From positions 21,392,001 through 21,456,000 of the forward strand of contig CM097885.1 of assembly GCA_044892525.1 (NCBI GenBank): DNA of 64,000 bases, given 5' to 3'. Each line of letters starts with the position of its first letter. Position 1 is the stretch's first letter. Below are positions 11,481-60,931 of this stretch, piece by piece. The position numbers were made by a program, and so were the translations under genes. The stretch comes from Schmidtea polychroa. Its lineage: Eukaryota. The notes beneath the pieces are model-generated. The model was given only the letters and a program-made list of their open reading frames with translations, was not told the origin of the DNA and did no database searches.

Positions 11481-12536
11481 AGTACCCTGCTATCTTCTAA
11501 CAATTGCAAATTGACAAGGACTAACGTATAGTCGAAAATTTTTTCATATTAAATATTATTTGCAACAAAAGGCTTAAATTATCATTTAATTGTTTAAAAC
11601 ATATTGTAGGCATGTTTTTTTTTACATATGTGATTGCTTGTATGAATTCGGACGTTATTGAACATTAAATGGTTTTAAAATTTATTTAATTAAAAATTAA
11701 AATTATGTTATTATAAGAACTTTTTTCAATTTTGTATTTATTAAAATTATGTTATTAATAATATATGTAATCTTAATATTATTTTATTATCCAAAATATC
11801 CAAAATAGCACAAAAATATCCAAATCGAATAGCAAAAATCCAAAACGGCTTGGCTAACCCTGAAGTGTCGATTAAGGTCAAACAACTGAAAGAAATTTTA
11901 GTGGAAAACTGGAGTCTGATATCTATAGTTCAGAGTGAGATTGGAAATCTATCACAATTTATCAATGGTAATTTAGCCATATCAAGAAACAGGTAATTTT
12001 AATAGCTATGGCAATTATATTCAATATTGGAATAAGACATAAATAAAGCATTATGTTTCAAGGAAAAGGGAATAAAAATAAAAGCACTATATGAAATCGA
12101 TGTAGATATAAATTTCAAGAGTAAAACGTTGCCAGAGTTGATATTAGAAAGAAATCCTAAGGTTCACGTGCACAATCAAAATTAAGTGCTTTATTATTAG
12201 GTGGCAAAGGACCAGAGGAAGTTCATTTGGGGCTCATGCTAAGTATGGGACAACGAATTACGGCGTAAACATTTAAATGAAGAAGAACATCGAGAGCAAT
12301 GAATAAAAGGTATTATTTAGTAAAAGTAGAAACCATAAAAAGTGAACAATTAAAAAGTAAAATGTAAAAAGGAAACAATGACATCCAATAGCAGAATGCA
12401 ATCACCACTGCAAAATTACAGGCAAAATAATTTTAAAAAATACAGACAATTTCAACGCAGCTTTCCTATATTGAAAAATATTATTGATTTTTTTCATTTT
12501 ATAGCTTGCACAGATCACTGAAATATAGAATAATAT

Positions 12537-12786
12537 TGGTGGGTTACTGAGGATCAAATATTTTGCTCTTTAGTGCTGTTACCAGCGTAACCCAAGATAC
12601 AACATTGTTTACCGCTTGATACCCGTTGAGCGATCAACGTTGGTACTGTATCAAGAGGGTGAGTGCTCGCAAAAAGTGAGCGCACTACTTGCACTGTAAT
12701 TGTCGAACACTCCTTTGGGTTCACGGACTGCCGATAGAAGGCTTGTGTCCGATTTGGCCTGGTCCCTTCACCAGATTGTCTTCCCA
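12537..12786 (+). ncRNA. Conserved structured RNA-like motif, copy A
   Basis: Several stems with compensatory changes relative to copies B and C; GCGA tetraloop. Confidence 0.65.
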
Positions 12787-14739
12787 ATACCATACCCTAT
12801 TCATCCCCTTTATCTCCCCCATACATCATTTCTTCCAATTCATGCACACACGCACATGTTTCATGGCAACTCTCTAGTGAAAGTTAATAATTATTTATTA
12901 AAATACCACACATAATTCAGGTTTATGTTGGGTTAATTTCCCGTTCAATCAAAATACCAAAAATTAATACTTAATTTTAATTCAGGCAACCCAGATTAAA
13001 TTAAAGTTGAGTTTAATTATCCATATTTCTTTTCCTTTTAAAAATTAAATTTTCAATTAATAATAAGAATAAAAAATTAATCCAAGGTGTTTAAATCACC
13101 TATTTATAATTATTATCCAGTTATTTTGCACTATGGAATTACTAATTTTTATTGATAAATTTATTGAAGAAAGCAATATAGAATATGGCGGAATAGCAAT
13201 ATATAATTCTATTCAAGTGTGTTCAGATTTTATTTGGTTTATAATGAGCCCTGTCGTTATAAAAGATTGCAATGGTCGGATGTTCGAAGGTTTATTTCTA
13301 GCGTTTATTCATTTAAGTTCTACACAAGATCCAATTTATGCTATTCGGAATTTAATTAGTCGAAATGGACATCCGGATTTTATTAAATTATTTTTAATCA
13401 TTGTTTCGACTTTGTGTATTATATTTATTCTAAATGTGAAAATCGTTTTCCAGTTTTCAGATTATCTTGATTGTGATGAAAAACGTTTTCATGCTCAGTC
13501 GTATAGATTAATAACAACTGGATCCATTCCATTTCGTTTGTCTAATGCTATTTATTTATCGAGATCGGCAGTACCTTTTTGAGAGATCGAATTATCAATT
13601 CGTCTTCATCAACGGAAACGTGTATCGTTACACGACATGTGCCGAGCAATATCGATGAAATGTGCTATGGTTATTCATTAATCATTCAATCTCCAATGCC
13701 AAAACCGCTCGAATTTCAAGATTACTCTATTTCGTTTTTTATTTTGAAAATTATTTCTTGTATTATTTTGCATTTGAACTGGGTATTTTACGTTTCTCAT
13801 TCGCCTGGCTTTGTTCGTGAAGATAAGTTAAAGGTTTCTTGCCGCATTGTTGTGAAATCACAGGAAGAAATTGTCCGTTTGTTGAAATGTTCATCAGTTA
13901 TCAGTGGTACTATTATTGGTGTCCTTGCTGTTTGGGAGATTTCGTAAATTTCCCAATTGTCAGTTTGATTGGTTTTGTGAATTTTGCTACGCACTGTATC
14001 AATTTTTAATGTAATCAGATTATAATATTTTTTGAAAATTAAATCTAAATGAATATTTATTTTATTTGTATATATTCTTTTTATTCATTCATTCTTATTC
14101 TTTCTTATTCTATGTATAATAACAATAATAACATTGATAGCTTTAATAATAATAATAATCGTAGTAATAATAATAACACTAAGTGTAATAATGAGAATAA
14201 TAATACATGCAAAGTCATAAAAAAAATTTTTTGGATTATAGGACGACTAGAATTAACCTTAATTCCTGTTATTATACAACTTGGGGTCTTTATGGGGGAA
14301 GGTGGTCATATTTTTATAAGGTTGTTTTATAAATCGGTATGTACATACACACATCCACTTATATATACGTATACATATACACCCACACATATATACATAT
14401 ATGGATATAGTTTAAATTAATAATATTGATGTCGTTTTCAGGGGGGGGGGGTGTTACTAAAAATAGATTTTAGTGATTTTCCGTAATTTTATTGGAAGAT
14501 AGGGCCATTGAAACTAAATTTAGAGATAGGGGAATCCCAAAATCGATAATTTTGTTTAAAATTTTATTTTTAAGAAATAATAATTACTTTAATAATATAA
14601 TCAGTTTAGTGGGGTTACTGGGGAAAATAAAATCAATGATATCAATAAAATGTAATAGTAGTACTAATGATAGTAGCAGTAATGTTAAAATAACAATAAT
14701 GATAAACGGCGAATGTACCTTGATATCTTTATGAAATTA

Positions 14740-15530
14740 CCACGGGTATATAGCTTGGGGGTCATTTAGGAATTTTAAGAGTTATCATTTTAAAATCAAA
14801 TATAAGATGAATATATACATATATATACACATACACATATACACACACATATATACATATATATAAAAGTAGTCTATCTTAGTGTAAATTTAGATAAATA
14901 TATAATTTGAGGGGGGTCATTTAGGAAATTTTACCACTTATATTTTTTATTATAATGTAAGTTAAATATATATTAAAATAAGCCAATTTAGTATGTATAA
15001 GTTTGAGGGGGGGGGGTCATGTGTGAACATTTACAATTTACATTTTTAAATATAATATAAGTTAAATATATATTAAAAATAAGTCAATTTAGTATATTTA
15101 AGTAATGGACAATGAATGTATAATTTTGAGGGGGTCAGTTATGAACATTCCCAATTTAGAATTTTAAATATACTATAAGTTAAATATATATTAAAATAAG
15201 TTAATTTAGGATATTTATGCAATGGATAATGAATGTATAATTCGGAGGGGGGTCATTTATGAACATTTACAATTTATATTTTAAAATATACTGTAAGTTA
15301 AATATATATTAAGATAAGCTAATTTAGTATATTTAGGTGGTAGTTGATGACTATATGGTTTGTAGGGGGGTCATTCATAAAAATTTACAATTTAAATTTT
15401 TAAATATAATAAGTTAAATATGTATTAAAATAAGCTCATTTAGTATATTTAGGTGGTAGTTGATGACTATATGGTTTATGGGGGGTCTTTGATGAAAAAT
15501 TTTCAACTATGATGTTAAAGGCAATCTAAG
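14740..15530. repeat. Degenerate tandem array, mostly ~120 bp units with GGGGGTCA cores
   Basis: About 7 recurrences of G-run+TCA...AAGTTAAATATATATTAAAATAAG. Confidence 0.8.
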
Positions 15531-16560
15531 TTAAGTTAAATTTATAGTTTATATTTTAAAGCTAATATAATTTTATAATTTATATTTTTATGAAGTTAAA
15601 TTTATAGTTTATATTTTAGAACTGATATAATTTTATAATTTATACTTTTAAGTTTATAATTTATATTTGGTGAAGTTCAATTTATAGTTTATATTCCTAA
15701 AGCTAATATAATTTTATAATTTGTATTTTTAAGTTTATAATTTATATTTTTATGAAGTTAATTTTATGGTTTATATTTTAAAGCTAATATAATTTTATAA
15801 TTTATACTTTTAAGTTTATAATTTATATTTGGTGAAGTTCAATTTATAGTTTATATTTCTAAAGTTAATATAATTTTATAATTTATATTGTTAAGTTTAT
15901 AATTTATATTTTTATGAAGTTAATTTTATGGTTTATATTTTAAAGCTAATATAATTTTATAATTTATACTTTTAAGTTTATAATTTATATTTGGTGAAGT
16001 TCAATTTATAGTTTATATTTCTAAAATTAATATAATTTTATAATTTATATTGTTAAGTTTATAATTTATATTTTTATGAAGTTAAGTTAAATTTATAGTT
16101 TATGTTCTAAGACTAATCTAATTTTATGATTAATACTTTTAAGATCATGATTTATATTTTGAAGAAATTAAGATTATAATTTATACTTTTACAATCAACT
16201 TAGAGTTATAATTTATAATTTATAGTCAATGTAAATTTGTAATTTATATTTTTAGGAAATTAAATTTATAATTTATACTTCTATAACTAATTATAATTTA
16301 TATTTTTATGAAATTAGGATTATAATTTATACTTTTACAATCAACTTAGAGTTATAATTTATAATTTTTCAGTCAATATAAATTTGTAATTTATATTCTT
16401 AGGAAATTAAATTTATAATTTATACTTTTATAACTAATCATAATTTATATTTTGAAGAAATTAAATCTATAAGTATAATTCATATTTTTATGAAATTGAG
16501 AGGATAATTTATACTTTTATGGGTTTACGATTTGTATTTTTATAGTTAGTTTAGAGTCTA
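15530..16560. repeat. AT-rich hierarchical minisatellite (TTTATAATTTATA core)
   Basis: Directly visible; related tracts at about 52370-52620 and 58570-58810 in the other LTR copies. Confidence 0.85.
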
Positions 16561-19024
16561 TTCAATTTAGTGTAGAATAATGTGAAGATGTTGCCCGAAC
16601 TTATACGTTATAGATATAATATTAGTAGTTTATAGATAAAGAGACTTTATCAATATGTCTACGGGAATTTGCGCATACCAAGACCATTACGATAGAGAAA
16701 TTTAGTTTGCATCAAAATAGGTTATTTTGTGGGCATCTATAGATATTAGTTCGCTTACCAGTGCGATTGAGATTATATCTTAGGTCCTACTCATCGCATG
16801 AACTTTAGGTTGCAGTATTCTTACAGGGAATGGTTCAAAATTTTTAAGTCTTTAATTGCCTTAAAAAAAATTTTGCGCAGGGATCTCCTGTTATTTTGAG
16901 TTAATTAGTTTCTTAGGTTCACATTGAATTTATAGTTTAAGAGGGATTCGTTTAGAAATAACCAGCTACACTATCATGTTGTATTGTGTGAAATTTGAGT
17001 CAGGGGATATTCCCCGTTTATCAGTTCCTAATGTTGTGTGCAAAATAGTATAATTTAAGTATTAATTTAGGTATGTAAGTTAACGAAAAGGTCGATTTAA
17101 TTAAAATTTACCTACTTTCCCGACTACACTGAGTACGGTACGATAGGCCCTATTGTAATATGTATCCACAATTAGTTTCCCATAATTATTTCGTCCGCAT
17201 AGTCCCTGTGACTATGCCAACTACCAAGAAGGATTTATACGCCCTACTCATGGTTAAACACCAATAGTTCGTGGCGACCTCTGGTTAAGATTATGATTTT
17301 AGTGCATGTAGGGTCGATGACCCGAAATCATTATGAACTGTGCATTCATAAATGATAAAGTGCATAGGTGCAGGTTTGGCTGGGATCTCGCTCCAAAATC
17401 ATTGATAACCGACGATCTCATTCAAATCTACACCTCTATAATTAAATAGAAATAATGAAAACAAGGTTTCAATAATAATAATTTATAATTCACAATGAAA
17501 TCGTCCTTACTTACAATCTCAGAAAAATCAAAATCAAAAATTTGGCATAAGAGTAAAAATATTCATTTTCATTTTTTTTCTTGCTTGCTTAAAAAGTGAC
17601 GAAATGTGTTAGTTTATATAGCCTCTGTTTGACGTGTAAGTATACATGCGTGCATTGATGCAGTAAAACAAATTCAGATTATTTTAATTCTCGAACATTC
17701 GATTTTTAATTTTTATCGATTTTGATGGCGATTTTTCAGTAAGAATTTTTGTTTTTATTTTCGAAATTTTATTTTCGAATTATTTTTTATTAAATTTGCC
17801 TCCATGATGGATTTCAGCATTTCCAGAACAGTCCATGCTAAATTCAATCTATTTCTTATTTTTAAATTGTTTTTTATGATTTCTTTTCTAAAATATTTAT
17901 TTTTTAAACTAAAATATTTATTTTTTATAAATTTTATTGGGTCGTTTGGCCGTCATGATGGATTTCGCCATTTTTATGAATTGTTCTGGATTTTTATTCA
18001 AAATATCGATATAATTTTCTTTACGTAAGATTTTATGAAGATTTTCTTTAATTTTCTTTTTTAATTTTTACAATCGCCTTTATTCGAATTTGTTTTTTGT
18101 TGTTTTTTATGTCTTTCGGTTATATTTGAGTAAGTTTTCGTGTAATACTTCTTGCTCGTGTTTTATTTTATTTTTAATTCAGATGTTTTATTTTTGGGTA
18201 TATTATCTCTCTATTATCATTGTTTACTTGGTGTTTTATATATTTTTATTTAAGTAAACTTAATGCTGGGTATGCGTGTTGTGTACTGACCCATTTCGTC
18301 CCATTCCAAACTTTGGGTCTAGAAATCAGTTCTAGCCCAACAATATTAATAAATACTTATGTAAATTTGAATTACTGTAGTATAAAGTTATCATTAAATA
18401 TAATCAGAGATTGATTGTCATATGAAGAGCCTTACTTTTGGTCACTCTATATTATCTATATTAATTTTATATAAAAAGTTTCGTTAATTTTAGTATCCAT
18501 TTTCATGTTAGGTAGATCAGCTAAATTCTAAATAAAAATATTTTAAGATTTTTGGAGTCATGGAGTTTACAGTTTTTTTTACAAATAATGATCACAAAGA
18601 TATATAGTGAATTAAAAACATTACGATCTTAACCATAATAACGGCATTTTATGATTTCTTCACCTATGGTAAGAAATTAGGGGTACCAAAAATAATTAAA
18701 ATAAATTATAAATTTAAAAATATATCAACAAAAATAATATCAACCCATTATAAGTTAAACTTTGAACTAAATTAATTGATTTATTGGTAATTTCTGTAAT
18801 TATTATTGATGATTCACAAAATTTGGATTTTTTTTTTGAAAAAAAGTTTAAAACATGTTATCATAGAAACAGTCAACAAAGCCTTTCCATAATAATTGAC
18901 ACAAGGGAATTTTTTAAGACTTATTTTAAGTTGAAGAGTTTCTTTCAATTTTTATACATTTATTGTTTTATAGCATGTTTTTACATTGTTTTATAAAATA
19001 TTTAATTAAATAATTTTAGTTATT

Positions 19025-20857: not shown

Positions 20858-22129
20858 GTCAATATTACCCCACTGGAAATTTTTCACAAATGGACTTGAA
20901 TTAAAAACGTGAACACACAATACCCAAGTTCATCCATATATCCAAACACTAATAAAATGACTGTTTGTTGGGGTTTGGCTCGTTCTGAGAGCAATTTAGA
21001 TAGCCATGTAGAGGCTAGGTACTGCACAACCCGACCGCGAGAAGCAGCAATTCGGACTGACTTACTCGTCGGATTTAAATTTACATAGAGAATCAATATT
21101 AGGTAACAGTAGATCGATCTTGATCTACACAATCGCACAAACTTCGGGAAATCCCTCCATCTTGATCCATTCTTTTATATAGCGCTGAGAGGCATTAGTT
21201 CCAGCGACTGTGCTTTATCTGAGAACGGTTCGAATAACCGATTTCTTTATTTGAGTGTTGAGCGGCATTTTTTGGAAACACATTATTATTATTTGTATAT
21301 TTTGTGCATAATCAATAAGTCTTTTAGAAATAAATGTCTTGATTAATTCATATCGATTTATTTATATATACCTACACACACATATATTTATATCTTTGGA
21401 GTCAGATATAGTCTGTGTTAGGAAGAATCTATCCATAAGATCGGAACCTAATATGTTCATCATGTGAGTTAGGAACAATTTGAGTGTCCAAGATTTGGGC
21501 TCCCTTGACAAAAAATTTATAATTGACTTTTGAAAATTTGGCAGGTATCTACCATAATTTTATTAATTTAAGCAAGTAGTAGGATTGGAGCTCCCCAGAT
21601 CAGGAGCTCCCCAGATCAGGAGCTCCCCGCATCACATAAAACCCCTCCCCCCCGGAAAAAAAAATTTTTAGCACGATGCCACATATTTTTAGAACTATTA
21701 CGTAATCAATGCCTAATATTTTTAGAACTATTACGTAATTTTATTTTAAATTAAGTGATCTGGCGGGCTCACACTTTTTTTCATCCCAAAAGTTAATGTT
21801 CCCACCATCAGATTTTATTGACCGATACCTCATCTTAAAGCTCAGTCCAAGACCTTTCGAATGAGCTATAGGTATCTTATATATCTTTAATAGTTTTAAT
21901 GTTATTAACATTTAATGACCACCATTTTTTCAAAGTTAAATTATTATTATTTGTCAAAATATTATTAATTGGCACAGCGGGCTCACACTTTTTTTCATCC
22001 CAAAGATTAATGTTCCCGCCAACATATTATATTGATCGATAGCTTATTTTAAAGCTCTGTGCAAGAACTTTCTAATGAGATATAGATTTTTATCATACGA
22101 TGACTCATCACATTTTTAGAACAAAGACA

Positions 22130-22470
22130 ATGAGTCATCATATTTTTAGAACGATGCCTAATATTTTTAGAACTATTACGCAATCGATGCCATATATTTT
22201 TAGAACGAAGCCACATATTTTTAGAACTATTACGTAATCGATGCCTAATATTTTTAGAACGATGCCTAATATTTTTAGAATGATGCATAATATTTTTAGA
22301 ATAGTGCCTCTTATTTTTAGAATGATTACGTCATAATTTTAGAACGATGCCTAATATTTTTAGAACGATGTCTAATATTTAAGAATGATGCCTAATATTT
22401 TTAGAATGATTACGTCATATTTTTAGAACGATGCCTCATTATTTTAGAACGATGCCTAATATTTTTAGAA
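22130..22470. repeat. Subterminal ~21-bp tandem array (ATTTTTAGAACGATGCCTAAT variants)
   Basis: Directly visible; mirrored at about 31318-31665 with a different unit order and number. Confidence 0.9.
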
Positions 22471-23043
22471 CTAATAATTTTTGTTTTAATTATCGATTAC
22501 ATAATAATTTAATTTGTTTAAATCGTTGATTATTATTATTTTTATTATTATTATTATTATTATTATATACTCCGAGTTTATCCGACAAGATATTCTGTCC
22601 CCCTATGGGTATTGCTAGCAAGGGTACTACTCACACTCAACAAGTCACATGGGTACTGTTCATATTATTATTATTATTATTATTATTATTTATTTTTTTT
22701 TCAAAGATATTTAGTTACATGCTCACTGCAAACTAAAGTAAATATGAACAGTATTATCAAATTAAATAAAAATAATAAAACTTTATAAAAATTTAAATTC
22801 TTTTAATGGCTCAAAACAAAGTCCTAATCCATAGTGACAACATTACTAGTTTTCAATAATAAAACAATTTTTAATATACTTTCTATGTTTAAACACTTAA
22901 GGAATGTTTAATAATATTACACAATATAATGATTTTTATCCATAGAAAGAAATACGAAAACTTTTCATTAATAAAAATCAACACAAATCAATGTTTTTAC
23001 AAAGTTATATTAATTTATCACAGGAAAAAGATATTAAAATCGC

Positions 23044-26000
23044 TTAATCACTCAATTGTACATCATCAATATCAATTTCGTCACTCAATTGTACATCATC
23101 AATATCGATTTCGTCACTCAATTGTACATCATCTATATCTATTTCATCATTAGGATCATCACCAGAATCGAAATCTAGACTTAAACCATTGAAAAGTGGA
23201 CCCACTTCCTCATCACCAGAAACAAAATCTGGACTTAATCCTCCGAATAGTGGCCCAACTTCTTCAAATATTTGATCATCATTTATATCATCTAGTGCTA
23301 AATAATGACCAAATGCGAGACTGGAATTTTTCCCCACCCAAAACCGCTTGTCGTCGTTGTTTGACAACGCGATTTTATTGTTTTTAAATGTGTACAATTG
23401 ATGGTTCCGCGTCCCTATCCTACTTTGTGGCACAGAAAATACTACGTTGTTATTGTAGCATTCTAAATATGAATCGTGCCTAATTTCTGTACCTATTAAC
23501 CTGACTCCTTTTGCTTTTAAATGATCTTTAGCCCCTAATAAACTATAGCACTTGGGTCTTAAGAAAACCCATTCCTTATACCCTAGACCTTTACTTTCAT
23601 CTTTAAATTTACCTATCACAGAATCAAGGTTTCTAGAGTATAAGGGATGTGCAGGGTCATAGTTGGAAGTATTTAAAAGATTGTCACGAATCATTGCCGG
23701 CAAAAGAGTGTCAAGCTTACAGTGCCTAACCTCAAGAAAAAAGGAGTCAGTATCGCCGGCAACGATATTTATCTCACATTTAAATTCATTTCTATATTTA
23801 GCCAATTCTATATACTGTGACTGGTACATCCTCAGTTTAGACAGGTCTAGCACCGTTTGGCCAATGTAACTAGGCCTGTCTAAACATATAGAATCCTTAT
23901 TGAGATGTGCAGCAATCAAGTCATCATCAATTTTGATAGATTTCTTGAAAGTCGGCTTTGAAGCATATACAATCATCTTTTCAGCTGAATTGCATAGCCT
24001 CAAATTCATCCGTTTTTTAAGGTTTTCTACGGATTTCCCATACAGACTATTATTAAATAATTTGTATAGATCTCTGTGCAGCTCACATGTAGAATTGGCT
24101 CTCAAATTAGTGTTTTTGTCTATGTAAGATTTAAAAATGGGTGCATGCTTAAATTTGATTGCTCTATGTACATTTTTAATAATAGCCCCCAATTCTATAT
24201 ACAACTTGAGAAGTCGCCAATGAAGAACATGGTTCTTCTTCGGCCAATGCGTGAGCATCAGCTTCTCAACTTTAGAATTTGGCGGGCACATCTTTTCCGG
24301 AGCAAGAGGAAAATCATTCAGAAAGTCATGCAAACAATCAGGTATATCGATATCTACCTCCATAGTATAACCATATGGAAGGTTATCGATATCAGCAATC
24401 ATACATTCATTCAAGACAGAATCAAGATCATCATACACCCAAACAAAGTCAGCATAAGGCAGATTTTGGCTTAAGGCCCAACCATACAAGTTATTAATAT
24501 CAATATACAAGAGTTCTGTGTCTTCAGAACTTGCAACATAATGTTTGTTAACAAATGTTAACCCACCCCGTATCCCTCCTTCATAGAAATTAAACATTTC
24601 CATGTCCTGCAAAAGTTCAATGGGTTCCGTTAATGTCATAAGCGCAGAGACCCATGACATACCGGGAATGCCATAGAAATTAAGAGGCTCAAGACCATTG
24701 TAAGCAATGGCCTTTTCACGGAATTGTTGAAAATAGTCTGCGAGGAGAAACACGTCTAATTTAAGGTAAGTTAACATGTAATCTAACATGTTGTTACAGT
24801 TTTGCTGAGTCCAAATTACTTGGGCTAATGCATATTCATCATTAGACACTGAATCCCAGATAGGAGGCAATTCAAGAGTCGATTCCAGAACCTCAAGAGA
24901 TGTGGCAAAGTCATAAGGAAAGATACCTTTGGATCGAACAATTGCGCCATCGAAAACAGAAGAAGTTAAAGGCAGATCGGAAAGAGTCTTAACCGCTTTT
25001 GCTAAAGAAGAATTAACAAACTGCATGATGTCAATAAAACGAACAGACAATTTGTTAATGTACGCGATAAGAGAGATGAATTTCTCGGTAGTGGTCGGAA
25101 TAATATTTAATTCCCAAGAAGGAAAATTATTGAGACCGTACTTCAAAATATGATGGAGATCATACCCCCTCAAATTGTGAAAAACCACAGGTAACTGTTT
25201 CTGAATTCGTCGAGAAACATTACATTTCCTACAGGCAGCACCAAGATACTTACCTGAAAAGTGACAATGATCCCTAACTCTATTTCTAATAAATTTTTTA
25301 CAAAGGTAGCAGGTTCTGGAATCACGAAAAGCCCGCTCTTCAGCGAAAGACAAGGTTTGCATGGGCTTTTTCCCATTAATTTCGTAATATGGCAGGACAA
25401 TTGTCATAGCAATTTCCTCCACCTTATTCAAGAAAGATAAGATGCAATCATCCCCAACAAACTCATAATAAAATTTAGAGTTATTATAATTATTTATTAA
25501 TAATAAACCTGCTGTTATTGGCAAATGCTTTTGATGGTGTATTATATCCCCAGGTAAAATTGATTCAAAGTCTGCATATATCACGAATGGCGGGGTTATG
25601 GTTTTCGCGAAATTACTAAATATAAGGTTTTTATCTTTAGGTAACGTGTATAGAGTTGTTCCTATCTGGTTTTTAATGCATAAGGCAACGTGAATATCAA
25701 ATGCATTTTTATGTCTAAATCCGTTAAGACAGTGGGGGCACCAGTTCACTTGAAGTATAATGCCGCATTCACTGCTAGAGCGACAATTCATTAGTCTTTA
25801 TAAGTTAAAAACTGCGGTATAATGAAAATTATCACCGTCTTCCAATAAAAGTAAGTATAAGGGTTCACCACCTATAACCTTAGATCGGTGAATTATATCT
25901 AATTGAGGATGATGTGGAATATAATTATCGTCAACTATATTTTCAAAAGGCTTAGCAGGGGTCGTTCTATAAGTTAAAACATTTATTGCTAAATTTAAAT

Positions 26001-26520
26001 CCTTATTTTTCATCTCGAATTTAGGAATATCACATAGTTTCATTGGACAGTCGGAAATGGGGTCAAAATTTAACTCGTCAAGATAATTTTCATAGGAACT
26101 AACTCTATTTCTATTTATATGTACTACATTACGTTTTAAAAGTGCTAAAATACTATATATAAAGCACATATCATCGGTGTTTTTAACATTTACTATTGCA
26201 TTTTTAGATTTTAAAGATGATGGGGTGGGGATATAACTATGTCCAGCTAGCCTATTCATATGTGTAAATTTTGTTAATATAAAATCTATTTCTTTGATTT
26301 TAACAACCCGCCATCCACTACCCAAATATGTGAATTTTTCTATTTTATTATTTAATTTGTGAACCCCCTCACTTAGAAAACTATCTGAAAAAGCCTCTGC
26401 CCTATTCGAGAAGAAATTATCTTTAATTTCACCATCTTTTTCAAATTGAATCAATACGGAGAATTGTATTTTCACCGACCCCATTCTGTTTATTTCATGA
26501 TTTAACTTATTAACGATTTT
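23044..26520 (-). pseudogene. Protein-primed family B DNA polymerase, 5'-truncated, one in-frame TAA at 25798-25800
   Basis: YADFES, endonuclease-VII-like CYLC..DHCH..CRKCN, FHNLRGYD, KGIFPY, DINNLYG, KLFNNSLYGK, GDTDS, DDKR; ORFs 25798-26484 and 23044-25791 share one frame. Confidence 0.93.
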
Positions 26521-26529
26521 ATCGGTTAT

Positions 26530-28463
26530 GGTTATTTGAATGATGTTATGACCGTCTCTCTGATTGTGTTTGCGTATTTTACTACCATATTTCTAATTGT
26601 CGCCGCCGATTTCGGAACAATAAACCCACGAGCTCCTAGCGATGTTCTCAGTTCAGCCGATGTGGCAAATACGCTAAAGGGCAGTCCGTCAAGGGCGGTC
26701 ATTCTAGAAAGAACTGCAGGCAACGACTTGTCATGTTGATTTTGGAAGAAATCGGTGATCAGAGGTTTGGGTTTTTTGGCCGATGACAACGGAGCCGATG
26801 AAAACGAAGCCGATGACGATGCTGCATCTTGGGTCGATTTTCTCTTTAGCAAGTCAATTTCATGGTTTGTTCTTAGATGTGTATGGAGTCCACTGGTACT
26901 GCCACCATGTGATTTTATCTCTTTGTCGCATTTCTTACACTTTGAAAGTTGATTTTCTTTATCACGCAGAAAATAAAACCACACAAAATTTTCGTCTACT
27001 CGTGCGCCGGTGCTGAACTCTTTGAATATTTTTTGGGACATTTTGGGGGTTTCTGGATATTAAATTAATATAAAACTTTTTTTGTCTATTTCTTGTTGTC
27101 TTCAAACAAAAACAAAAATCTGCAAATAAAATCGAACTAATTCATTTAAAGTACCCAAATCTATGTTTATAAATTAAATACTTACTATTTAAATGCAAAT
27201 TTACTAACGTAGACGTATTTATTTGAATAAATATCAATCGGATTTCAATTTAACTACTGAATTATTATATAACGTTATTGTTATTATTGAATTTAAAAGT
27301 AGGTTTCTGAAATTTCGGGTCAATAAAATAATTAAATCTAGCACATCGCATACTAGAAATATTTGGTTAATGGGATTTATGTTTAAATATCCAAAGCAAA
27401 ATTAAGTTTAAAATCATTCTTAAATAAAAATTTTACTTATTTTTAATCTTGATTATTTATATGTTTTTTAGACTTCCAATTATATGACGATCTAGATAAT
27501 AAATTATCAAATGTTACAAGAAACTGTTGTAATTTGTACAACATTAATTGAAAAAACATTTTTTTTACTAAAAAACAACGCATGAGTAAAAAAACCAGAA
27601 AATTTCACTACAAATAGCTATTGTAATAAAAAAGCGCTTATTTTGAAAATAAATGAACAATTTACTCAATTAAAATAATAAGTTAAATAATGAGCATATG
27701 TGGCAATGTTATATTCGTGGACAGATTAAAATCATTTTGCTTTGTCCAAAAATATTTGCGATGATTTCAAATTGAAAAGTAAATAAATAAATAAAAATAC
27801 ATTCATAACAAAAAACCTTCCTACATTATTATTGGATCAGTTCAAATTTCTGAAAAAAACCACGATAAGCAAGCCACCATATTTTTATCAGAGGTTAGGA
27901 AATCTAAGCTTATAGTTTGTCGAGTACTCGAAAGTGCTTTTTTTTGTAAGGGAAGGTTTATTTGCGCGGGTAAAATACAATTCAGAATGCATAAAGTTTT
28001 TTTTATTTAACGTTATCATAATTACTTATAAAACTTTATGCCTAATAATCTATTAGGCATAAAGTTTTTGCATGAGTACTGAAGATATAATAGAGACATT
28101 TGTCTTTTTAAATACTAGTTAAATAATAAATAGTCAGGAAACAATAAATTTAGTCAGGAAAAATTGTAATTGGTCATGAATTTTACAATTTTTAGTTCTG
28201 CATAAACAGTCATGCAAAACCATTAATAGTCCTGCATTCGTCAATTTAGTTATGAAAGTCTAATTTATTTTTGCTTAAAAAAGCAATGCCTTATTATTAT
28301 AATATTTTTTAAGTAAAATTGAGAAACAATTTTAAATATTTTTTATATATCCTATACCGGAAATACCGGCATTGATCCAACTCAATACCGGTATTTCGGT
28401 ACCAGAAAAAAGTCCGGTAATACCGGTAGTACCGATACCGGTATACCGGTATTGAATGCACTA
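26530..28463 (-). mobile_element. hAT transposon 5' half with BED-finger ORF (26532-27041)
   Basis: Minus-strand terminus TAGTGCATTCAATACCGG with ATACCG repeats; VWFYF..CKKC..STSGLHTHLRTNH BED finger and DGLPFS motif. Confidence 0.85.
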
Positions 28464-30732
28464 CTGCTACCTTTGTAAAAAATTTATTAGAAATAGAGTT
28501 AGGGATCATTGTCACTTTTCAGGTAAGTATCTTGGTGCTGCCTGTAGGAAATGTAATGTTTCTCGACGAATTCAGAAACAGTTACCTGTGGTTTTTCACA
28601 ATTTGAGGGGGTATGATCTCCATCATATTTTGAAGTACGGTCTCAATAATTTTCCTTCTTGGGAATTAAATATTATTCCGACCACTACCGAGAAATTCAT
28701 CTCTCTTATCGCGTACATTAACAAATTGTCTGTTCGTTTTATTGACATCATGCAGTTTGTTAATTCTTCTTTAGCAAAAGCGGTTAAGACTCTTTCCGAT
28801 CTGCCTTTAACTTCTTCTGTTTTCGATGGCGCAATTGTTCGATCCAAAGGTATCTTTCCTTATGACTTTGCCACATCTCTTGAGGTTCTGGAATCGACTC
28901 TTGAATTGCCTCCTATCTGGGATTCAGTGTCTAATGATGAATATGCATTAGCCCAAGTAATTTGGACTCAGCAAAACTGTAACAACATGTTAGATTACAT
29001 GTTAACTTACCTTAAATTAGACGTGTTTCTCCTCGCAGACTATTTTCAACAATTCCGTGAAAAGGCCATTGCTTACAATGGTCTTGAGCCTCTTAATTTC
29101 TATGGCATTCCCGGTATGTCATGGGTCTCTGCGCTTATGACATTAACGGAACCCATTGAACTTTTGCAGGACATGGAAATGTTTAATTTCTATGAAGGAG
29201 GGATACGGGGTGGGTTAACATTTGTTAACAAACATTATGTTGCAAGTTCTGAAGACACAGAACTCTTGTATATTGATATTAATAACTTGTATGGTTGGGC
29301 CTTAAGCCAAAATCTGCCTTATGCTGACTTTGTTTGGGTGTATGATGATCTTGATTCTGTCTTGAATGAATGTATGATTGCTGATATCGATAACCTTCCA
29401 TATGGTTATACTATGGAGGTAGATATCGATATACCTGATTGTTTGCATGACTTTCTGAATGATTTTCCTCTTGCTCCGGAAAAGATGTGCCCGCCAAATT
29501 CTAAAGTTGAGAAGCTGATGCTCACGCATTGGCCGAAGAAGAACCATGTTCTTCATTGGCGACTTCTCAAGTTGTATATAGAATTGGGGGCTATTATTAA
29601 AAATGTACATAGAGCAATCAAATTTAAGCATGCACCCATTTTTAAATCTTACATAGACAAAAACACTAATTTGAGAGCCAATTCTACATGTGAGCTGCAC
29701 AGAGATCTATACAAATTATTTAATAATAGTCTGTATGGGAAATCCGTAGAAAACCTTAAAAAACGGATGAATTTGAGGCTATGCAATTCAGCTGAAAAGA
29801 TGATTGTATATGCTTCAAAGCCGACTTTCAAGAAATCTATCAAAATTGATGATGACTTGATTGCTGCACATCTCAATAAGGATTCTATATGTTTAGACAG
29901 GCCTAGTTACATTGGCCAAACGGTGCTAGACCTGTCTAAACTGAGGATGTACCAGTCACAGTATATAGAATTGGCTAAATATAGAAATGAATTTAAATGT
30001 GAGATAAATATCGTTGCCGGCGATACTGACTCCTTTTTTCTTGAGGTTAGGCACTGTAAGCTTGACACTCTTTTGCCGGCAATGATTCGTGACAATCTTT
30101 TAAATACTTCCAACTATGACCCTGCACATCCCTTATACTCTAGAAACCTTGATTCTGTGATAGGTAAATTTAAAGATGAAAGTAAAGGTCTAGGGTATAA
30201 GGAATGGGTTTTCTTAAGACCCAAGTGCTATAGTTTATTAGGGGCTAAAGATCATTTAAAAGCAAAAGGAGTCAGGTTAATAGGTACAGAAATTAGGCAC
30301 GATTCATATTTAGAATGCTACAATAACAACGTAGTATTTTCTGTGCCACAAAGTAGGATAGGGACGCGGAACCATCAATTGTACACATTTAAAAACAATA
30401 AAATCGCGTTGTCAAACAACGACGACAAGCGGTTTTGGGTGGGGAAAAATTCCAGTCTCGCATTTGGTCATTATTTAGCACTAGATGATATAAATGATGA
30501 TCAAATATTTGAAGAAGTTGGGCCACTATTCGGAGGATTAAGTCCAGATTTTGTTTCTGGTGATGAGGAAGTGGGTCCACTTTTCAATGGTTTAAGTCTA
30601 GATTTCGATTCTGGTGATGATCCTAATGATGAAATAGATATAGATGATGTACAATTGAGTGACGAAATCGATATTGATGATGTACAATTGAGTGACGAAA
30701 TTGATATTGATGATGTACAATTGAGTGATTAA
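28464..30732 (+). pseudogene. Second (inverted) copy of the pPolB C-terminal ~755 codons
   Basis: Translation identical to the minus-strand copy from CYLCKK onward; the ORF-track ATG comes from the hAT TIR. Confidence 0.92.
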
Positions 30733-35609: not shown

Positions 35610-36773
35610 ATTTTGTGCAGGGATGCGCCCTTATTTTTCTATTTATAAATGTTGCTAGGTATTTTCCTTGATATTTATGAATATTTAACCTATCTTCCAA
35701 AGGTTTTAAGCAGGGATCGGCCCTTATTTCCAAGTTAATCCACACTTCCCATAATATTTAAATTATTCTTCAAAGGATTTGAGCAGGGATCTGCTTGTAT
35801 TTCTAATTCTAACCTATATTCCAATGGAAATACTTACAGCGACAGCCCCCCCAACAAAACATACCTCCATTACGCTTAAACCATTAGAAAAACAACCTAA
35901 AACTTATACTTTTATAGTATTTTAACCCTATATTTTGAAAACAACCACCCTTAATGGCTCTAACTGTTTTAATCTTTAAAGCCTCAAACTCAAAAGCTTC
36001 AAACTAAAAACATAAAGAGAATAGAAAAGAAAATGGTATTATGAAAAAGTTAGAGGGCTATTTTGGTTAGGGATATAAACACACTACTTGAGGATGTCAA
36101 CTAGCAAGTTGCTATTTGACTAATTTATAATTTTATAAATCTTAATCTTGATGTCTTGAAGAATAAAAAATTTTATGAAATAGTAAAACTGCTCTGAGAG
36201 GACAGTGGTATTTTTTTTTTCATTGTCCTCTCAACAGTTTTTTTGATCCGGATCATTTTTTTATTCAACCTCTTTCGTTTATCGAATCTCTTCCAATATA
36301 CAAGCTGGCCAGACTCATACATCAGAATCAATTCGATAATAGCAGCACACCTTATTATTCGCTTCTCGCTCGAATACGATTTCATCGGCGTTTTAAGCGT
36401 GCTGCTCGAAAGTACAAATGAATTCGAAAGTGAATCCGAAAGAGGTCCGAAAACAACTGAGAAATAAATGTGCACATTATAGAATCGATCCGGGGTGTGT
36501 TCGAAAGACTGGTGGCGATAATTATCGGTTCACCATCACACCCGTTTCAATAATTTTTTTTCATATTTATGTTTAAAAAATAAAATAAAATATATAAAAT
36601 AAAATAAAAATAAATAAAATAAAATATAAATTTAAGATACCCACAATATTATTTTCAAATTTTTAATATTATTTTATGTTGAAAAAAAACTAACCTCAGA
36701 TGTGATTTGAACCGCTATCTATTTTAACCACTGTGCCAGTCTAGCCCACTGCGCTATCTGGGTTTGGATTTTT
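35610..36773. repeat. Left TIR
   Basis: Reverse complement of 50148-51316. Confidence 0.92.
36682..36763 (-). ncRNA. tRNA-sized Pol III-type unit in the left TIR
   Basis: A box TAGCGCAGTGG, B box GGTTCAAATC, terminal stem, T8 run. Confidence 0.55.
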
Positions 36774-36842
36774 ATTTATAAAATTCTAAAAATTAGACTG
36801 TCACATTATGAAAATGAATAATATATAAATTTAAAAAATAAA

Positions 36843-41318: not shown

Positions 41319-41423
41319 TTTTTTTCTTTTAAAAATGTCAACAATTAATTTAAGAGTGACAACATCAACCTTTTGAAGGGCAATAAATTTTTTTAAATAA
41401 TCATCCATTTTAGTATGAAGTTT

Positions 41424-42023: not shown

Positions 42024-42031
42024 TTTAATAA

Positions 42032-42840: not shown

Positions 42841-43092
42841 AATCCCAAAAGAATCAAAGTATATAGATTTATTATATATACAAACCCAATGAGATCCTTT
42901 CTCATTTGAATTTTGATAATTGATTATTATATTCTGGGGACTCCGTCTAAGGGGAGTACCTCCAATTTTATATAATTCATCGTTCATTAATATTTTAATT
43001 TTTAAATTTAAATAATCTGCATAATCTTTTAAATCAAAATTTGTTTTTGCATTTATTCCAAATGTTTTTAAAAAATCTAATATTGAAGCCAT
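42840..43092 (-). pseudogene. Adenain-like cysteine protease, N-terminal half
   Basis: IINY..GSHWVCI..IYFDSFG (His and Asp present); the catalytic Gln/Cys segment is absent. Confidence 0.85.
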
Positions 43093-43100
43093 TTTGTATT

Positions 43101-43940: not shown

Positions 43941-43962
43941 TTTAATGGTATTAAAAATGGTA

Positions 43963-44520: not shown

Positions 44521-44535
44521 TTTATAATAAACAAA

Positions 44536-45327: not shown

Positions 45328-45338
45328 GGCTTGTCGAC

Positions 45339-46736: not shown

Positions 46737-46753
46737 TTTAAAATGTTAAAATA

Positions 46754-48046: not shown

Positions 48047-48073
48047 TTTTATAATAAAAATTTTAAAAATGAC

Positions 48074-53772: not shown

Positions 53773-54012
53773 TGATGGGTTACTGGTGGTCGAATGTTTA
53801 AGTGCTGTTACCAGCGTAACCCAACACACAACATTGTTTTCCTCTTGGTACCCGTTGAGCAATCAACGTTGGTACTGTACCAAGGGGTTGAGTACTCGCA
53901 AAAAGTGAGCGCGTCAAGCACTGTAATTGTCAAGCACTCTATGGGTTCACGGACGCCGATAGAAGGCACGTGTCCGATTTCTTTCGGTCCCTCATCGAGA
54001 TTGTTTTTCCAA
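53773..54012 (+). ncRNA. Conserved structured RNA-like motif, copy B
   Basis: Same stems as copies A and C; GCAA tetraloop. Confidence 0.65.
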
Positions 54013-54140
54013 ACGCCTTTCTACCAGTCATCTTGTTTTAAACAACCGCAAAGTTCAATCTCATACTCATTAGACAACAAGAATCATTTATTTGATCAAT
54101 ACTATATTACAAAGATTGTTTACGCACTCTCGAACGTCTC

Positions 54141-56251: not shown

Positions 56252-56493
56252 TGGTGGGTTACTGGTGGTTGAATGATTGAGTGCTGTTACCAGCGTAACC
56301 CAAAATACAACATTGTTTTTCCGCTTGGTACCCGTTGAGTGATCAACGTTGGTACTGTACCAAGGGTTGAGTACTCGCAAAAAGTGAGCGCATCAAAGCA
56401 CTATAGTTGTCGAGTACTCCGTGGGTTCACGGACTACCGATAGAAGGTGTGTGTCCGATTTCTCAGGTCCCTTTATCAAAATTGTTTTCCCAA
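56252..56493 (+). ncRNA. Conserved structured RNA-like motif, copy C
   Basis: Same stems as copies A and B; GTGA tetraloop. Confidence 0.65.
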
Positions 56494-56649
56494 CCTTATG
56501 CACAAACTCTCATTTCCCAGGCAATCATAAACTGTACTAGTCATTATTTTATCACTACAAAACGTGCAGTATTTTAACAAGGAACATATTATTTGAAGAC
56601 TACCACAATACATAAAAATACTACAAAACACCTAAAACCGAATATAAGT

Positions 56650-57119
56650 TCAAACAGGCCTATTGGTAGGACTGGCCAATTCCGTCGCAGCTGCTAGTGA
56701 CGAATTTGCTTGTCGCTCGTATTCGGCCAGTCTAGCTTTCTTCAATTTTTCCCGAATATTTCGGCCTAACCGCTTTCTTTTGGGTTTCTCTTTCGCGGCC
56801 GGGGGGTATATTGCTGCTAGTTCCACGGTCAACGGCCGGATTTGGTTTATGGCGGCTCCGTGAACTACTTGTTCATTTCGCTCGGTTTCTAGCGCGCGGA
56901 GCTGGAGCTTCAGTGCCCGGATCTCCATCTGATCCTGCGCGGCTTGAGTCTGCAGTTGAAGGACCCGCGCCACCTTCCTTTTCATATCCTCGGGACTAAA
57001 CCAGGTGCTTTCTAGTTCCCGGCACCGTCCCTTGAGCTTGTCTACTCGTATGCGGAGCTCCTCGGACTGTTTTTGAGCTTCTGCCCTATCTCTTCGCAGA
57101 TTTTCCAATAGTTTGAACA
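56650..57119 (-). CDS. LTR-encoded coiled-coil protein (exon after acceptor 57121-57120)
   Basis: Open frame conserved with copy B despite nucleotide divergence. Confidence 0.75.
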
Positions 57120-57329
57120 CTAGATAAATTCAACGATTATATTCTTGCAGCATACTATTCATTCAATTATAAAATAAAATCAATATTATAAATAAACATA
57201 GTTTCGGAGGTTAAGCACGCAATACACAAGATGATTTATTAAAAGGACTGAAATAATTATCACTAAAATCAAAGTTTAATAAAGTCACAACTGAATGATA
57301 ATTTGCAAAAACAAAATTTCGACGATAAG

Positions 57330-57695
57330 TCAGTTCAGTCGCTTGCGAGGCCTTCCCCTCTTCCGCGGGGTTGCCTCGGCCTCTTCTAGGTCCTCCACGG
57401 TTTTTCCCTCCTTTTCTGCTTGGATTTGTAGCTCGATCTTCTTGAGCCGCATCTGAGCTGCTTCTACCTCGATGGCCGCTCGGTCGCGGGCCTCTTGCAA
57501 AAAATCGTTTGTGGGCTCTGTTTTTACCCACGCCGGAGCGTCCGGCTCCGGCCCACTCCTGATTACTGGGCCAAAGTTGTCGAGGTCCAAACCCCGATTC
57601 CAATCATGGATACGGTGCCATATGTACCGTGTACGGAGTCTGGTAAGCATCTGTCGGTCGGCTTCTTCGTGGCTATCGCTGTCAGAGTAGGACAT
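57330..57695 (-). CDS. LTR-encoded small AT-hook protein
   Basis: 121 aa; C-terminal PRKRGRPRK; conserved with copy B. Confidence 0.78.
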   Translation of the reverse strand: MSYSDSDSHEEADRQMLTRLRTRYIWHRIHDWNRGLDLDNFGPVIRSGPEPDAPAWVKTEPTNDFLQEARDRAAIEVEAAQMRLKKIELQIQAEKEGKTVEDLEEAEATPRKRGRPRKRLN

Positions 57696-58214
57696 TTCTA
57701 CAAAATAATAATCAAGCCCCTCTATACTGATTGAGATACGACGTCAACCACAAGATTTTGTTGACCCTTTTTCCCTTTTAAAAAAAAAATATTTTATTTT
57801 TAAGACTAACATCTATAAGCTTAGGAGTAGTGGAATAAGGTTTCCTACTTTATCAAAACAAACACACAAAAAAAAATTTTCGTCAAAATTCGTTTGTTTA
57901 AATTAATCATTTCCATTCAAAATTTTGTTTACCACTGAGTAGTAATTTTAATTACTATTTATAAATTTTAATTTACATGTTAATAAAATGTGAATTTTTT
58001 CCTTTTTGATCGTCATTTTTAGGCCACTAAATTCGGGCACGCTGGGGCGACAGGTACTAGCAACGAACTAAGCTCTTCGTCTGCTTACCTTTCCTTCGGT
58101 TGTGCTCGTTATGAGTGGTTTGCTCTGCATACAAGTAATTTATTTAATTTGCTAATTTCTAAATTTCCAGGTGATCGATATCGGATTGGGATATCGATTT
58201 TTTTGTAGTTAACT

Positions 58215-58560
58215 GTAATAATACCAATAATAATAACAATGAAATAACGATACTAATAATAATAATAATAATGACAATAATAATACTAATAATAGCAATG
58301 ATAGTAATAATAATAAGAATAATAATAGATTTTAATAATGGTAATAATAATAATACTAATAATAGTAATAACAAGAATAATAATAAATTTTTATAATGGT
58401 ACTGATAATGATGATAATAATAATAATGCTAATTATGATATTCATAATAATGATAATAATGATATAATAATAATAAGAATAATAATACTAATAGTAATGA
58501 TAATGTTGATACTGCTAATAGTAATAACAAGGGAAATGATCAGGATTATGATGACTATAA
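58215..58560. repeat. Degenerate (AAT)n microsatellite
   Basis: Directly visible. Confidence 0.9.
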
Positions 58561-59844
58561 TTTTATAATCCCATGTTTTAGAATTACAAATTCATGTTTT
58601 ATAATTTACACTTTGATAATTTTCGATTTATAATTTAAAATTTTTCCATTTAGGGATTTACAACCTTGTAATTTATAATTATAATTTCATATTTTGAAAT
58701 TTATACATTCATATTTTATAAGTTGTAATTGCTTAACTTATAATTTATAAGTTTATAATCTAAAATTTATACTTTTGTAATTCGTATTTTCATACTTTAT
58801 ATTTGAAATTTTTAGTCGACGGAATATACTTCTTACAACTTCCTTTCTATGATCAACATTGTTTTCCGCAGTACTTACAAATTTCCTGGTCCTATTTGTG
58901 GATTAAACTTCAGGGTTCTAGCGCGTCTATCGCCTATCTGTAACCAATCCTAAGTTGATTTTTATACGAAAAATTGTTTACTACTATCTCTGATCAGACT
59001 TTCTCCATTAACAATTTACATTTTCAGGATCGACGTGATTTGTACCTAGCTATCGTAATTATTTATAACTTATAGTTTTATAGTTAACAACAAGAGTATT
59101 ACAACTAAGAGCCTACACATTTACAAACCTTTTAAAGTGGGAACTAGATTTAAAATGTCTATCTTTACTCGGAATCAGTATCCCTAGATCAAGTTATACC
59201 TGTACGTATGCCGAATATCTCTCTTATTTCTATTACTTTATCAAAGATCCTTACTACAAAATCTAGTTCGGCATATGTCTAAGTATAATTGAAATTACCA
59301 TTATGAATCAACGAGCTACATTAATGTGAGTGTAGAATTGTGTAATTTTAGGTACGAGCTCTACTCAAATTAGAACCTTAGTGTAGAGTTATTGTTCAGG
59401 ATTTTAAGTGTTGAGTTTAATTGTATATTACGCAATGAGTCGGGAAGAATATTGCTTCCATGGCCCCACTGTGACCACGTCCACAAACCTTAGTGTTGTG
59501 TGCTAAGTCAACCATTTACGGCTGACCTTAAATAAATACGAAGAGTCAGGCGGAGGGTTTCCTCGACCTAACTCCATGGCAGGACCATGAAGTAGTTCGA
59601 CCTCCGGCTGACCCGAACAAAAAGAAATCATATAATAAATATCACTATAATAATGATAATGCGTGTCTGCATGTCCTGTTAATAACGATTTTAATAAATT
59701 GGATGCAGGACTGAACAACGACGCAGGAATACCAGTACGCCGTTGATCACTCATACATCGCAAAAAAAAAATTTTAAGCAAAAATAAATTTAAAATACCA
59801 TCTATATAATTAAACAATTAATATACAAATAAAGATCAATGCTT

Positions 59845-59922
59845 ACTATCGATTTTGGAAATTTCGTCACAAAAATTTGGCATAAAAGTGATTATTGTGA
59901 CTGAAACGTGTCAGTATATATA
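59845..59922 (-). promoter_or_regulatory. Putative LTR TATA box, short leader exon and splice donor
   Basis: Minus strand TATATATA...TCAGTC...GATA|GTAAGC; the homologous site in the solo LTR (about 17505-17620) has TATATAAA and GTAAGTAAG. Confidence 0.5.
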
Positions 59923-60931
59923 CCTATTTAGTACACGTGTATGTATTGATGCATTAAAACAAACTCGAATTCTTTTTATTCCAGAATTTTCTATTTTACG
60001 ATTTTGCTATTTTTAATGGCAATTTTTGTGCCATAATTTTTGTTTTTATTTTTATATTTTTATTTTTTAATTATTTTTCATTAATTTTACGTCCATGATG
60101 GATTTGGAACGGTTCCAGAACATTCTATTTTACTTTTAATTTAATTTTTATTTTAACTGATGTTTTTATGAATTCTTTTTGAGATTTTTTATTTTTAATA
60201 CTAATTTATTTATTTTCCTTAACTTTTGTTGTTCTAGATAACTCTTGTGATGGTCATCGCCATTTTTATAGAATGTTCTGGGTTTTTCTGGAATGTTTTA
60301 CTGTTTTTATCGTCTTTTAAGTTATTCGAGTCTGTTTTTTGTAACTCTGTGTTTATTTGGTTATTTTTGAGTTAGATTTTTGCATCACTTCTTGCTTTTG
60401 TATAATTTTGTTTAATTTCTTTGTTTATGTTTTTGTTGCTTTCTCCTTTAGTTAATATTGTTTATTTGGTGTAGGTTTTAATATTTAACTATACTTGGTG
60501 CTTTTTTACTTGCTGTGTACCTACGCGTTTCAGTCACAATTAGTATTTTGGGTCTAGAAATCAGTTCTAGCCCAACATAAACCACTCGGGGGCCCATAAA
60601 ATTGCGACCCGCAATTTAAATCATAAGATGAAGAAAATTATTTTCAGAATACTTGCACTATATTACAAGTGCCTACATGCAAATTGGGTCCACGAGCTAC
60701 AGGGTCGTGACCTCAATACCCACATACATAAAAAGGCTACTATTATACTACATTCTACGGATGGGTTGAAAGATGAAGAAAAAGAACGACCGAGGTCGGT
60801 CCACACAAAAATAAAATTATCATGCTCAAGAATCAATGTTATTAGTCACAATCAGTCTCAGTCTTTGAAATCATGATTGTTTGATAATGTTTTATAATGT
60901 CATGAAATGTTTATACTGTCGTGATGTCACA

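Follow-up and report, generated by a model that had tools for sequence, protein, structure and literature searches.

A covarying RNA fold at the U5 end of giant LTR retroelements in Schmidtea polychroa, probably part of a leader domain around a tRNA-Pro primer binding site

A 64,000-nt stretch of Schmidtea polychroa DNA (contig CM097885.1, positions 21,392,001 to 21,456,000; hereafter the window) carries, in three copies, a block of ~250 nt that is kept while the sequence after it diverges, which raises the question of what this block is, on which strand it folds and why it has been retained. The initial annotation had described it as a covarying, probably pseudoknotted RNA structure at the terminus of a giant LTR family, had assigned the fold to the plus strand, antisense to the visible ORFs of the element, and had proposed a ribozyme, a packaging or replication signal or a nuclease-resistant element, with a loose echo of group I introns. 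Here, we followed the block through the genome, located it within its host elements and evaluated its fold on both strands.

The position of the block had been read correctly, as a three-copy alignment and a repeat scan (families D13 and D17) agree on plus-strand coordinates 12537-12786, 53773-54012 and 56252-56493, and the ~250-nt block is the only closely matching sequence common to the three window loci. With the boundaries used here, copy A spans 12537..12787, copy B 53773..54017 and copy C 56252..56497, all on the minus strand; copy B belongs to a different LTR subfamily and its flank carries no primer binding site, and copies B and C are ~82% identical across the block to the LTR of a 19-kb reference element described below. 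The block occurs in more than 1000 copies in the 781-Mb genome, with 1070 matches to a strict two-anchor block pattern compared with 0 for the reversed control, and a DNA search of the genome with copy A gave 3063 first-look candidates, the 40 scored ones being 98-100% identical. Outside this genome, an invariant 22-nt pattern was matched by neither metagenome nor viral contigs (0 each). No open frame spans the block (a stop-free frame of at least 80 aa is present in 1 of 83 distinct copies on the plus strand and in 5 of 83 on the minus strand), so coding does not account for its conservation.

The proposed location at the terminus of a giant LTR is borne out, the block being the first ~250 nt, in window plus orientation, of an LTR of 3.5-5.8 kb. 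In all 29 fetched loci besides the window's own, homology to the window begins at 12521-12537 and extends rightward for kilobases, which places the block at the very left end of a long repeat beginning TG. In the reference element, the two block copies lie 15.5 kb apart within terminal repeats of 3.5 and 4.9 kb that are 99.5-99.9% identical, have the ends TGGTGG...CCAACA and are bounded by a 4-bp target-site duplication, GTAC; the longer LTR of 4.9 kb contains an extra tandem-repeat stretch, in which the two LTRs differ by 1.4 kb. In the window, copy A is borne by a solo LTR (12537..18342, minus strand) with a 4-bp duplication, ATAT, at 12533-12536 and 18343-18346, and the four final sense-strand bases of this LTR, ACCA (12537..12540, minus strand), include the CA of its TG...CA ends. 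The LTR bearing copy C (56252..60577, minus strand) is a 3′ LTR in sense orientation, because the sequence from 60578 onward is internal and corresponds by homology to the reference element's 3′ internal end, and the element to which it belongs extends beyond the window.

Several further features of these loci were recorded. Tandem-repeat arrays with periods of 81, 92 and 118 bp lie within the LTR (window 14757-16561), and their length differs between copies. The window also contains two Maverick/Polinton-like DNA transposons (21600-32170 and 35610-51316) with a family B DNA polymerase (PF03175), an integrase core (PF00665), a double jelly-roll capsid domain (PF21738) and long terminal inverted repeats, one of the two having internal arms of 2647 nt that are 100% complementary. 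Elsewhere in the genome, at G000:C3:95218201-95248200 (loci L031-L033), two block copies stand 10.3 kb apart, each within its own copy of a 2619-nt repeat that is 99.96% identical between them and starts 333 nt before the block, which looks like a segmental duplication and not an LTR pair. TATA-like motifs upstream of the block were compared by eye across three subfamilies and were not taken as a promoter; since their distance is inconsistent, no transcription start is proposed. Among the sequencing runs listed as containing the stretch, none is recorded as RNA, and contigs from four runs, broken up by the repeat, give no indication of strand or of transcript ends.

The host elements measure 10-33 kb between LTR copies. 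The 19-kb reference element (L034 7539 to L035 2214, minus strand) contains two long ORFs whose sense is the minus strand, opposite to the block as it had initially been written. The first ORF is gag-like, with two CCHC zinc knuckles (E 5.4e-11); it is encoded by the strand that bears the primer binding site and follows that site after an interval of ~3.8 kb that holds no long ORF. The second ORF, of 879 aa, overlaps the first; it matched no Pfam family, and its 820-aa part gave no usable Atlas match. No reverse transcriptase or integrase is recognisable in the ORFs of the 19-kb element, and in a genome search for RVT_1, none of the candidates listed (150 of 12744) lies between known block-bearing LTR pairs. 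Some pairs of block copies stand 30-33 kb apart on the same strand, indicating larger relatives of the 19-kb element. A polypurine tract is absent before the 3′ LTR, where the sense sequence (...GGGCCCCCGAGTGTTTTA) is not purine-rich. The sequence just inside the 3′ LTR (window 60578-60620; L034 5374-5420) is 84% conserved between two subfamilies, and a small GC-rich hairpin, TTGCGGGTCGCAA in sense orientation, lies within this conserved stretch.

The inner flank of the block identifies the sense strand. In intact elements, the left flank of the block consists of an 8-nt spacer followed by 16-23 nt identical to the 3′ end of tRNA-Pro(UGG); in the right-hand LTR of the reference element, the primer site, CCCGGCTGAGCCCCCA, starts 8 nt beyond the block, and the match is longer in several subfamilies (TTCAAATCCCGGCTGAGCCCCCA), reaching 23 nt. 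The sequence CCCGGCTGAGCCCCCA is what the 3′ end of a genomic tRNA-Pro(UGG) gene yields on addition of CCA, the gene being recognised by ARAGORN and by the Rfam tRNA model (58 bits) and the identity of its end by sequence comparison. The spacer and CCCGGCTGAGCCCCCA, with at most three substitutions, flank 18 of the 83 distinct copies and are exact over 16 nt in 15 of these 18, which the primer-site flank identifies as 5′ LTRs; the remaining distinct copies adjoin unrelated DNA. Judged by this identity, the minus strand carries a tRNA-Pro(UGG) primer binding site 8 nt past the LTR end, and, given both this site and the gag-like ORF on the minus strand, the minus strand is the sense strand. Read in this sense, the block makes up the final ~250 nt of the LTR and corresponds to U5, possibly with some of R.

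This tRNA-Pro(UGG) gene, reached by a pattern search with the primer-site sequence, is repeated in a tandem array of at least 80 units with a 475-bp period (G000:C1:130901010-130944748, of which locus L077 covers the first 2 kb), and the tRNA 3′ pattern has 2275 matches genome-wide, the primer sites of the elements included. In the most divergent subfamily (loci L042-L063), the primer-site flank was found in 0 of 11 sampled copies, and the TTGGGAAAACAAT edge is missing as well, which suggests that these copies are solo or 3′ LTRs from an older lineage.

To evaluate the fold, we aligned 105 copies from the fetched loci and the window on the sense strand, two more hits without the start anchor having been dropped, and collapsed 22 exact duplicates, leaving 83 distinct copies that form 24 clusters at 10% divergence and 12 at 15%. 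The structure contains 52 pairs in four domains, S1-S4, all on the minus strand. S1 (12724..12751) is a hairpin of 5+3 bp, CGGAC/GUCCG and GCC/GGC, whose inner three pairs covary, and it is followed by a near-invariant single-stranded linker, UGAACCC (12717..12723). S2 (12661..12712), the most strongly covarying part of the block, consists of a 9+3-bp outer helix and a 6-bp inner hairpin (12679-12695). S3 (12615..12655) comprises 6+3+6 bp, with an A-U/G-C swap in the outer helix and an inner hairpin at 12624-12639, and S4 (12541..12593) has an invariant 7-bp stem around a 4-bp GCUG-GNRA-CAGC hairpin (12575-12586) and a variable loop. Copy A, folded singly as sense RNA to its minimum free energy, arrives at these four domains (z = -2.51; 2 of 200 shuffles are as good). 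Two candidates for a second contact with tRNA-Pro were rejected: duplex energies between tRNA nucleotides 1-53 and the block or leader are matched by 27-70% of shuffles, and the complementarity of the linker UGAACCC and a leader motif, GAACCYG, to the tRNA-Pro T arm stands at chance level, about one 7-mer match being expected by chance.

Across the 52 pairs and 83 copies, 97.2% of cells hold standard pairs compared with 94.1 ± 0.1% after shuffling, a value that 0 of 500 shuffles reach; 14 pairs are changed on both sides, against 9.5 when shuffled, and 182 cells are changed on both sides, against 47.9, each again reached by 0 of 500. The number of further standard pair types, 47 against 45.2, is not distinguished from shuffles (75 of 500 reach it). 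As a control, sliding the partner columns by 1-3 positions left only 31-38% of cells paired. Most of the signal is carried by nine pairs with robust compensatory change: two in S1b (GC 60/AU 21; CG 67/UA 8), three in S2a (AU 68/GC 8/GU 6; GC 32/GU 26/AU 23; CG 55/AU 13/GC 7), three in S2i (GC 58/AU 22; CG 54/UA 23; AU 31/GC 25) and one in S3a (AU 55/GC 22/GU 4). S4a and S3c hardly vary, and covariation therefore neither backs nor opposes them. The copies are related, so that the shuffle significance is overstated and the covariation rests on ~10-24 lineages of one genome; at the level of the 24 clusters, several pairs still hold two or three Watson-Crick types (CG 9/GC 6/AU 3; GC 12/AU 11; CG 13/UA 11).

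These nine pairs bear out the original reading of the LTR terminus as a covarying structured element, and several of the stems first drawn by eye persist in the 83 copies. The pairing GGAC..GCC/GGC..GTCC is retained with the S1b compensation, TTGATAC/GTATCAA with its A-T to G-C swap is the S3a helix, CGTTGA/TCAACG is kept, and so is TGGGTTAC/GTAACCCA, which is never informatively variable. Other proposals fell away. The hairpin CTCGC-AAAAA-GTGAG has one pair broken in 25 of 83 copies, those of divergent subfamilies, and another that reads A.C in sense orientation throughout (83 of 83); the nucleotides concerned are part of S2a, and the hairpin competes with a far better backed long-range helix described below. 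The AGTGC/GCACT pseudoknot can pair in the A, B and C types, but only 308 of 404 cells are Watson-Crick, there is no covariation, and the loop does not follow the changes of its S2i partner from G to A and C to U (AC 17, UG 20; AG 30). CTGGT/ACCAG lies in a poorly alignable stretch and found no support, a small hairpin being possible there in copy A only.

The block also pairs beyond the LTR. When sense RNA spanning the block, the primer site and adjoining internal sequence was folded, the 5′ edge of the block paired in each subfamily with a stretch of leader located 115-122 nt past the LTR end. The 5′ strand of this long-range helix, LR5 (12773..12787, minus strand; TTGGGAAGACAATCT in copy A), is without a partner at copy A because copy A is a solo LTR. 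The helix measures 13-15 bp, has its leader partner ~90 nt beyond the primer site and thereby encloses that site within a domain of ~385 nt. Both strands were found in 13 of the 15 5′-LTR copies with enough leader, three further 5′-LTR copies having leader sequence too short for this count; in the other two the 5′ strand was missed by the motif, and one of them (L051) still pairs by eye through several G.U. The 13-15-bp core is canonical in nearly all cells of the 15 copies, with 19 G.U against 4 A.C. An extension of the helix, GGCGC/GCGCC in one subfamily and AGTAT/ACACT in another, shows three compensatory changes and one A.C; A-type copies form the helix without this extension. For the whole structure in the 15-copy alignment, 95.4% of cells are paired compared with 93.6 ± 0.3% when shuffled (0 of 500 reach), and the observed value for doubly changed pairs is reached by 13 of 500 shuffles. 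The long-range helix needs U5, primer site and leader in one molecule, and hence a transcript through the 5′ LTR, and it explains why the conservation of the block starts where it does.

The block might instead be conserved at the DNA level, as the integrase end or as promoter-proximal or other protein-binding DNA, or might have spread by recombination between co-packaged RNAs, with no fold under selection and the covariation reflecting shared descent. Mosaic-looking copies (for example L066 and L105), in which the left part resembles one subfamily and the rest another, fit such a history, and the relatedness of the copies does inflate the shuffle tests. However, nine pairs in four helices are doubly changed, with three Watson-Crick types at one of them, the intermediates are G.U on one strand only, and the long-range helix covaries with sequence outside the LTR. 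In addition, integrase ends require terminal bases only, and 250 nt exceeds this need. We therefore consider it unlikely that the block lacks a selected fold.

A sense leader RNA could also serve mainly in translation control, in nuclear export or in protecting a very long leader, and the ~3.8-kb interval between primer site and gag in the 19-kb element is indeed unusually long. The domain nevertheless encloses the primer site and ends at the LTR terminus, as retroviral priming domains do, making another main role for the leader improbable.

The plus-strand assignment is opposed by the tRNA-Pro site, the gag-like ORF and the long-range helix, and likewise by the wobble pairs, which had been cited in its favour: the asymmetry is reversed, G.U cells numbering 198 when the pairs are read in sense (minus) orientation and 45 in plus orientation, the latter being A.C cells of the sense strand. 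Over the 52 pairs, the plus strand is 93.6% paired compared with 97.2% for the sense fold, and with one copy per cluster at 15% divergence (12 clusters), 41 G.U stand against 11 A.C. In 81 of 83 copies, one S2i pair joins U to G in the sense RNA and is hence C.A on the plus strand. At unpaired columns, sense C>T is not above G>A (7.4 versus 10.0 per column), and mutation bias is thus not the cause of the wobble asymmetry. The GNRA loops, likewise cited for the plus strand, are present there in S3c (72 of 81 copies) but also on the sense strand in S4b (81 of 82), and with one on each strand they do not settle the question. A candidate helix, GGGUUC/GGUCCC, could form on the plus strand only with a T.G pair; it never varies and is uninformative on strand. 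The plus strand folds too (z = -2.17), the helices being nearly symmetric.

The plus polarity is also that of minus-strand strong-stop DNA, which is copied from U5 and R, and a function of this DNA, for example in the first strand transfer, is a mechanistic possibility in reverse transcription generally. Such a DNA would cover exactly the block region, and on its polarity the S3c loop reads G-N-R-A; however, on this polarity A.C mismatches outnumber G.T four to one, and the molecule is without the leader beyond the primer site that the long-range helix needs, so that a functional form in DNA and not RNA appears very improbable. Least credible of all is a structured plus-strand RNA antisense to the element, whether a ribozyme, a group I-like fold or a nuclease-resistant element with a pseudoknot, because despite its good fold, its S3c GNRA loop and the presence of most helices, being symmetric, on both strands, the wobble count and the C.A pair oppose it, the sense strand has a GNRA loop of its own, its specific helices (CTCGC/GTGAG and the pseudoknot) are not kept, and Rfam gave 0 matches at gathering score in the whole window and four at E up to 10 within 12400-12900, at 12.6-18.3 bits against cut-offs of 54-100, none of them an intron or ribozyme. 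The echo of group I introns found no counterpart either, no group I or ribozyme Rfam model matching on either strand; of the functions first proposed, the packaging or replication signal comes close to the reading that we favour, and the ribozyme is not supported.

Taking these observations together, we consider, at a probability of roughly three in four, that the block constitutes the final ~250 nt, at the 3′ end, of the sense-strand LTR and forms a structured U5-primer-site leader domain of a superfamily of giant LTR retroelements, acting in cis for tRNA-primed reverse transcription and probably for packaging. The leader domain is defined here by its position, strand, primer site, helices and covariation, and its biochemical role is suggested by analogy with retroviral and Ty leaders. 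Genomic RNA started in the 5′ LTR would carry the block directly before the 8-nt spacer and the tRNA-Pro(UGG) primer site and would fold into S1-S4, while the 5′ edge of the block would pair with the leader ~90 nt past the primer site to close the domain of ~385 nt. The closed domain may present the primer site so that the tRNA can be placed and minus-strand DNA begun, and it probably carries signals for Gag recognition or dimerisation, and the last bases of the block would serve as the integrase end. The block may be kept while the rest of the LTR diverges because the same trans-acting proteins read all subfamilies, among them presumably the 19-kb gag-only form without a recognisable reverse transcriptase; the sharing of the block would fit a dependence of the 19-kb element on such common proteins.

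We further speculate, tentatively and as a possibility that we rate well below even, that the block, the primer site and the first ~120 nt of the leader make up a portable priming-and-packaging cassette, which the autonomous 30-kb and the gag-only 19-kb elements share and occasionally exchange by recombination. Within such a cassette, the invariant 7-bp stem followed by A-CCA at the LTR end would copy the layout of a tRNA acceptor arm and might be read by proteins that hold tRNA-Pro. If so, the cassette would be what gives non-autonomous giants access to the machinery of autonomous elements.

Giant LTR elements account for much of this genome, and the U5-primer-site-leader model offers a concrete target for probing how RNAs of 20-30 kb are primed and packaged. 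The block is a marker that finds all subfamilies at once, including those whose LTRs are otherwise unlike, and its sharing hints that gag-only giants need the same machinery. A search of openly accessible papers returned no account of this fold or of cis-acting RNA signals of giant LTR elements.

The closest parallels are the retroviral U5-PBS leaders, such as the U5-IR and U5-leader stems of avian sarcoma/leukosis virus and the HIV-1 PBS domain with its U5:AUG pairing. As in these leaders, a structured U5 end immediately precedes the tRNA primer site, U5 and leader are joined by a long-range helix that encloses this site, and the region is conserved while U3 diverges. The primer of murine leukaemia virus is tRNA-Pro, as in the elements that carry the block. 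Unlike the retroviral leaders, the block has no similarity to them in sequence or by Rfam model, and its domain is larger, with four domains and ~385 nt closed by the long-range helix; its hosts, unlike retroviruses, are giants with 10-33 kb between LTR copies in an invertebrate genome, and a corresponding role is suggested by analogy. In mouse mammary tumour virus, the PBS and a purine loop are reported to take part in packaging by Gag (PMC8096270).

The 5′ leader RNAs of Ty1 and Ty3 also form structures, which are reportedly tied to priming, dimerisation and packaging (PMC11381356, PMC6844567, PMC4974528). Like them, the block belongs to a cis-acting structure of the genomic RNA that surrounds an LTR-retrotransposon primer site. 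In Ty1 and Ty3, the signals overlap coding sequence and the primer is initiator tRNA-Met, whereas the block domain is non-coding, lies within the LTR and is paired with a tRNA-Pro primer.

The Burro/GYPSM1 elements of Schmidtea mediterranea are described as giant gypsy-like LTR retrotransposons of more than 30 kb, present in thousands of copies, with a Gag containing CCHC knuckles and a giant polyprotein with PR-RT-RH-IN and extra domains; that description contains nothing on a conserved U5 fold or on the primer tRNA (PMC6431247). The elements studied here may resemble Burro in size, copy number and gag (copy pairs 30-33 kb apart, 1070 pattern matches and a CCHC gag), and the 19-kb form differs from it in having two knuckles and no recognisable pol. 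Non-autonomous LTR elements of the TRIM, LARD and TR-GAG kinds are reported to keep only cis signals or gag (PMC4350172, PMC4558846). The 19-kb subfamily is far larger than the described TR-GAG elements (under 4 kb) and would only presumably depend on a partner, but it resembles the TR-GAG kind in having LTRs, a primer site and a gag-like ORF with no recognisable reverse transcriptase, and it shares the block with larger subfamilies. The leader domain, although without a described family, is therefore not a new RNA class; it carries the theme of retroviral leaders into an unusual host element.
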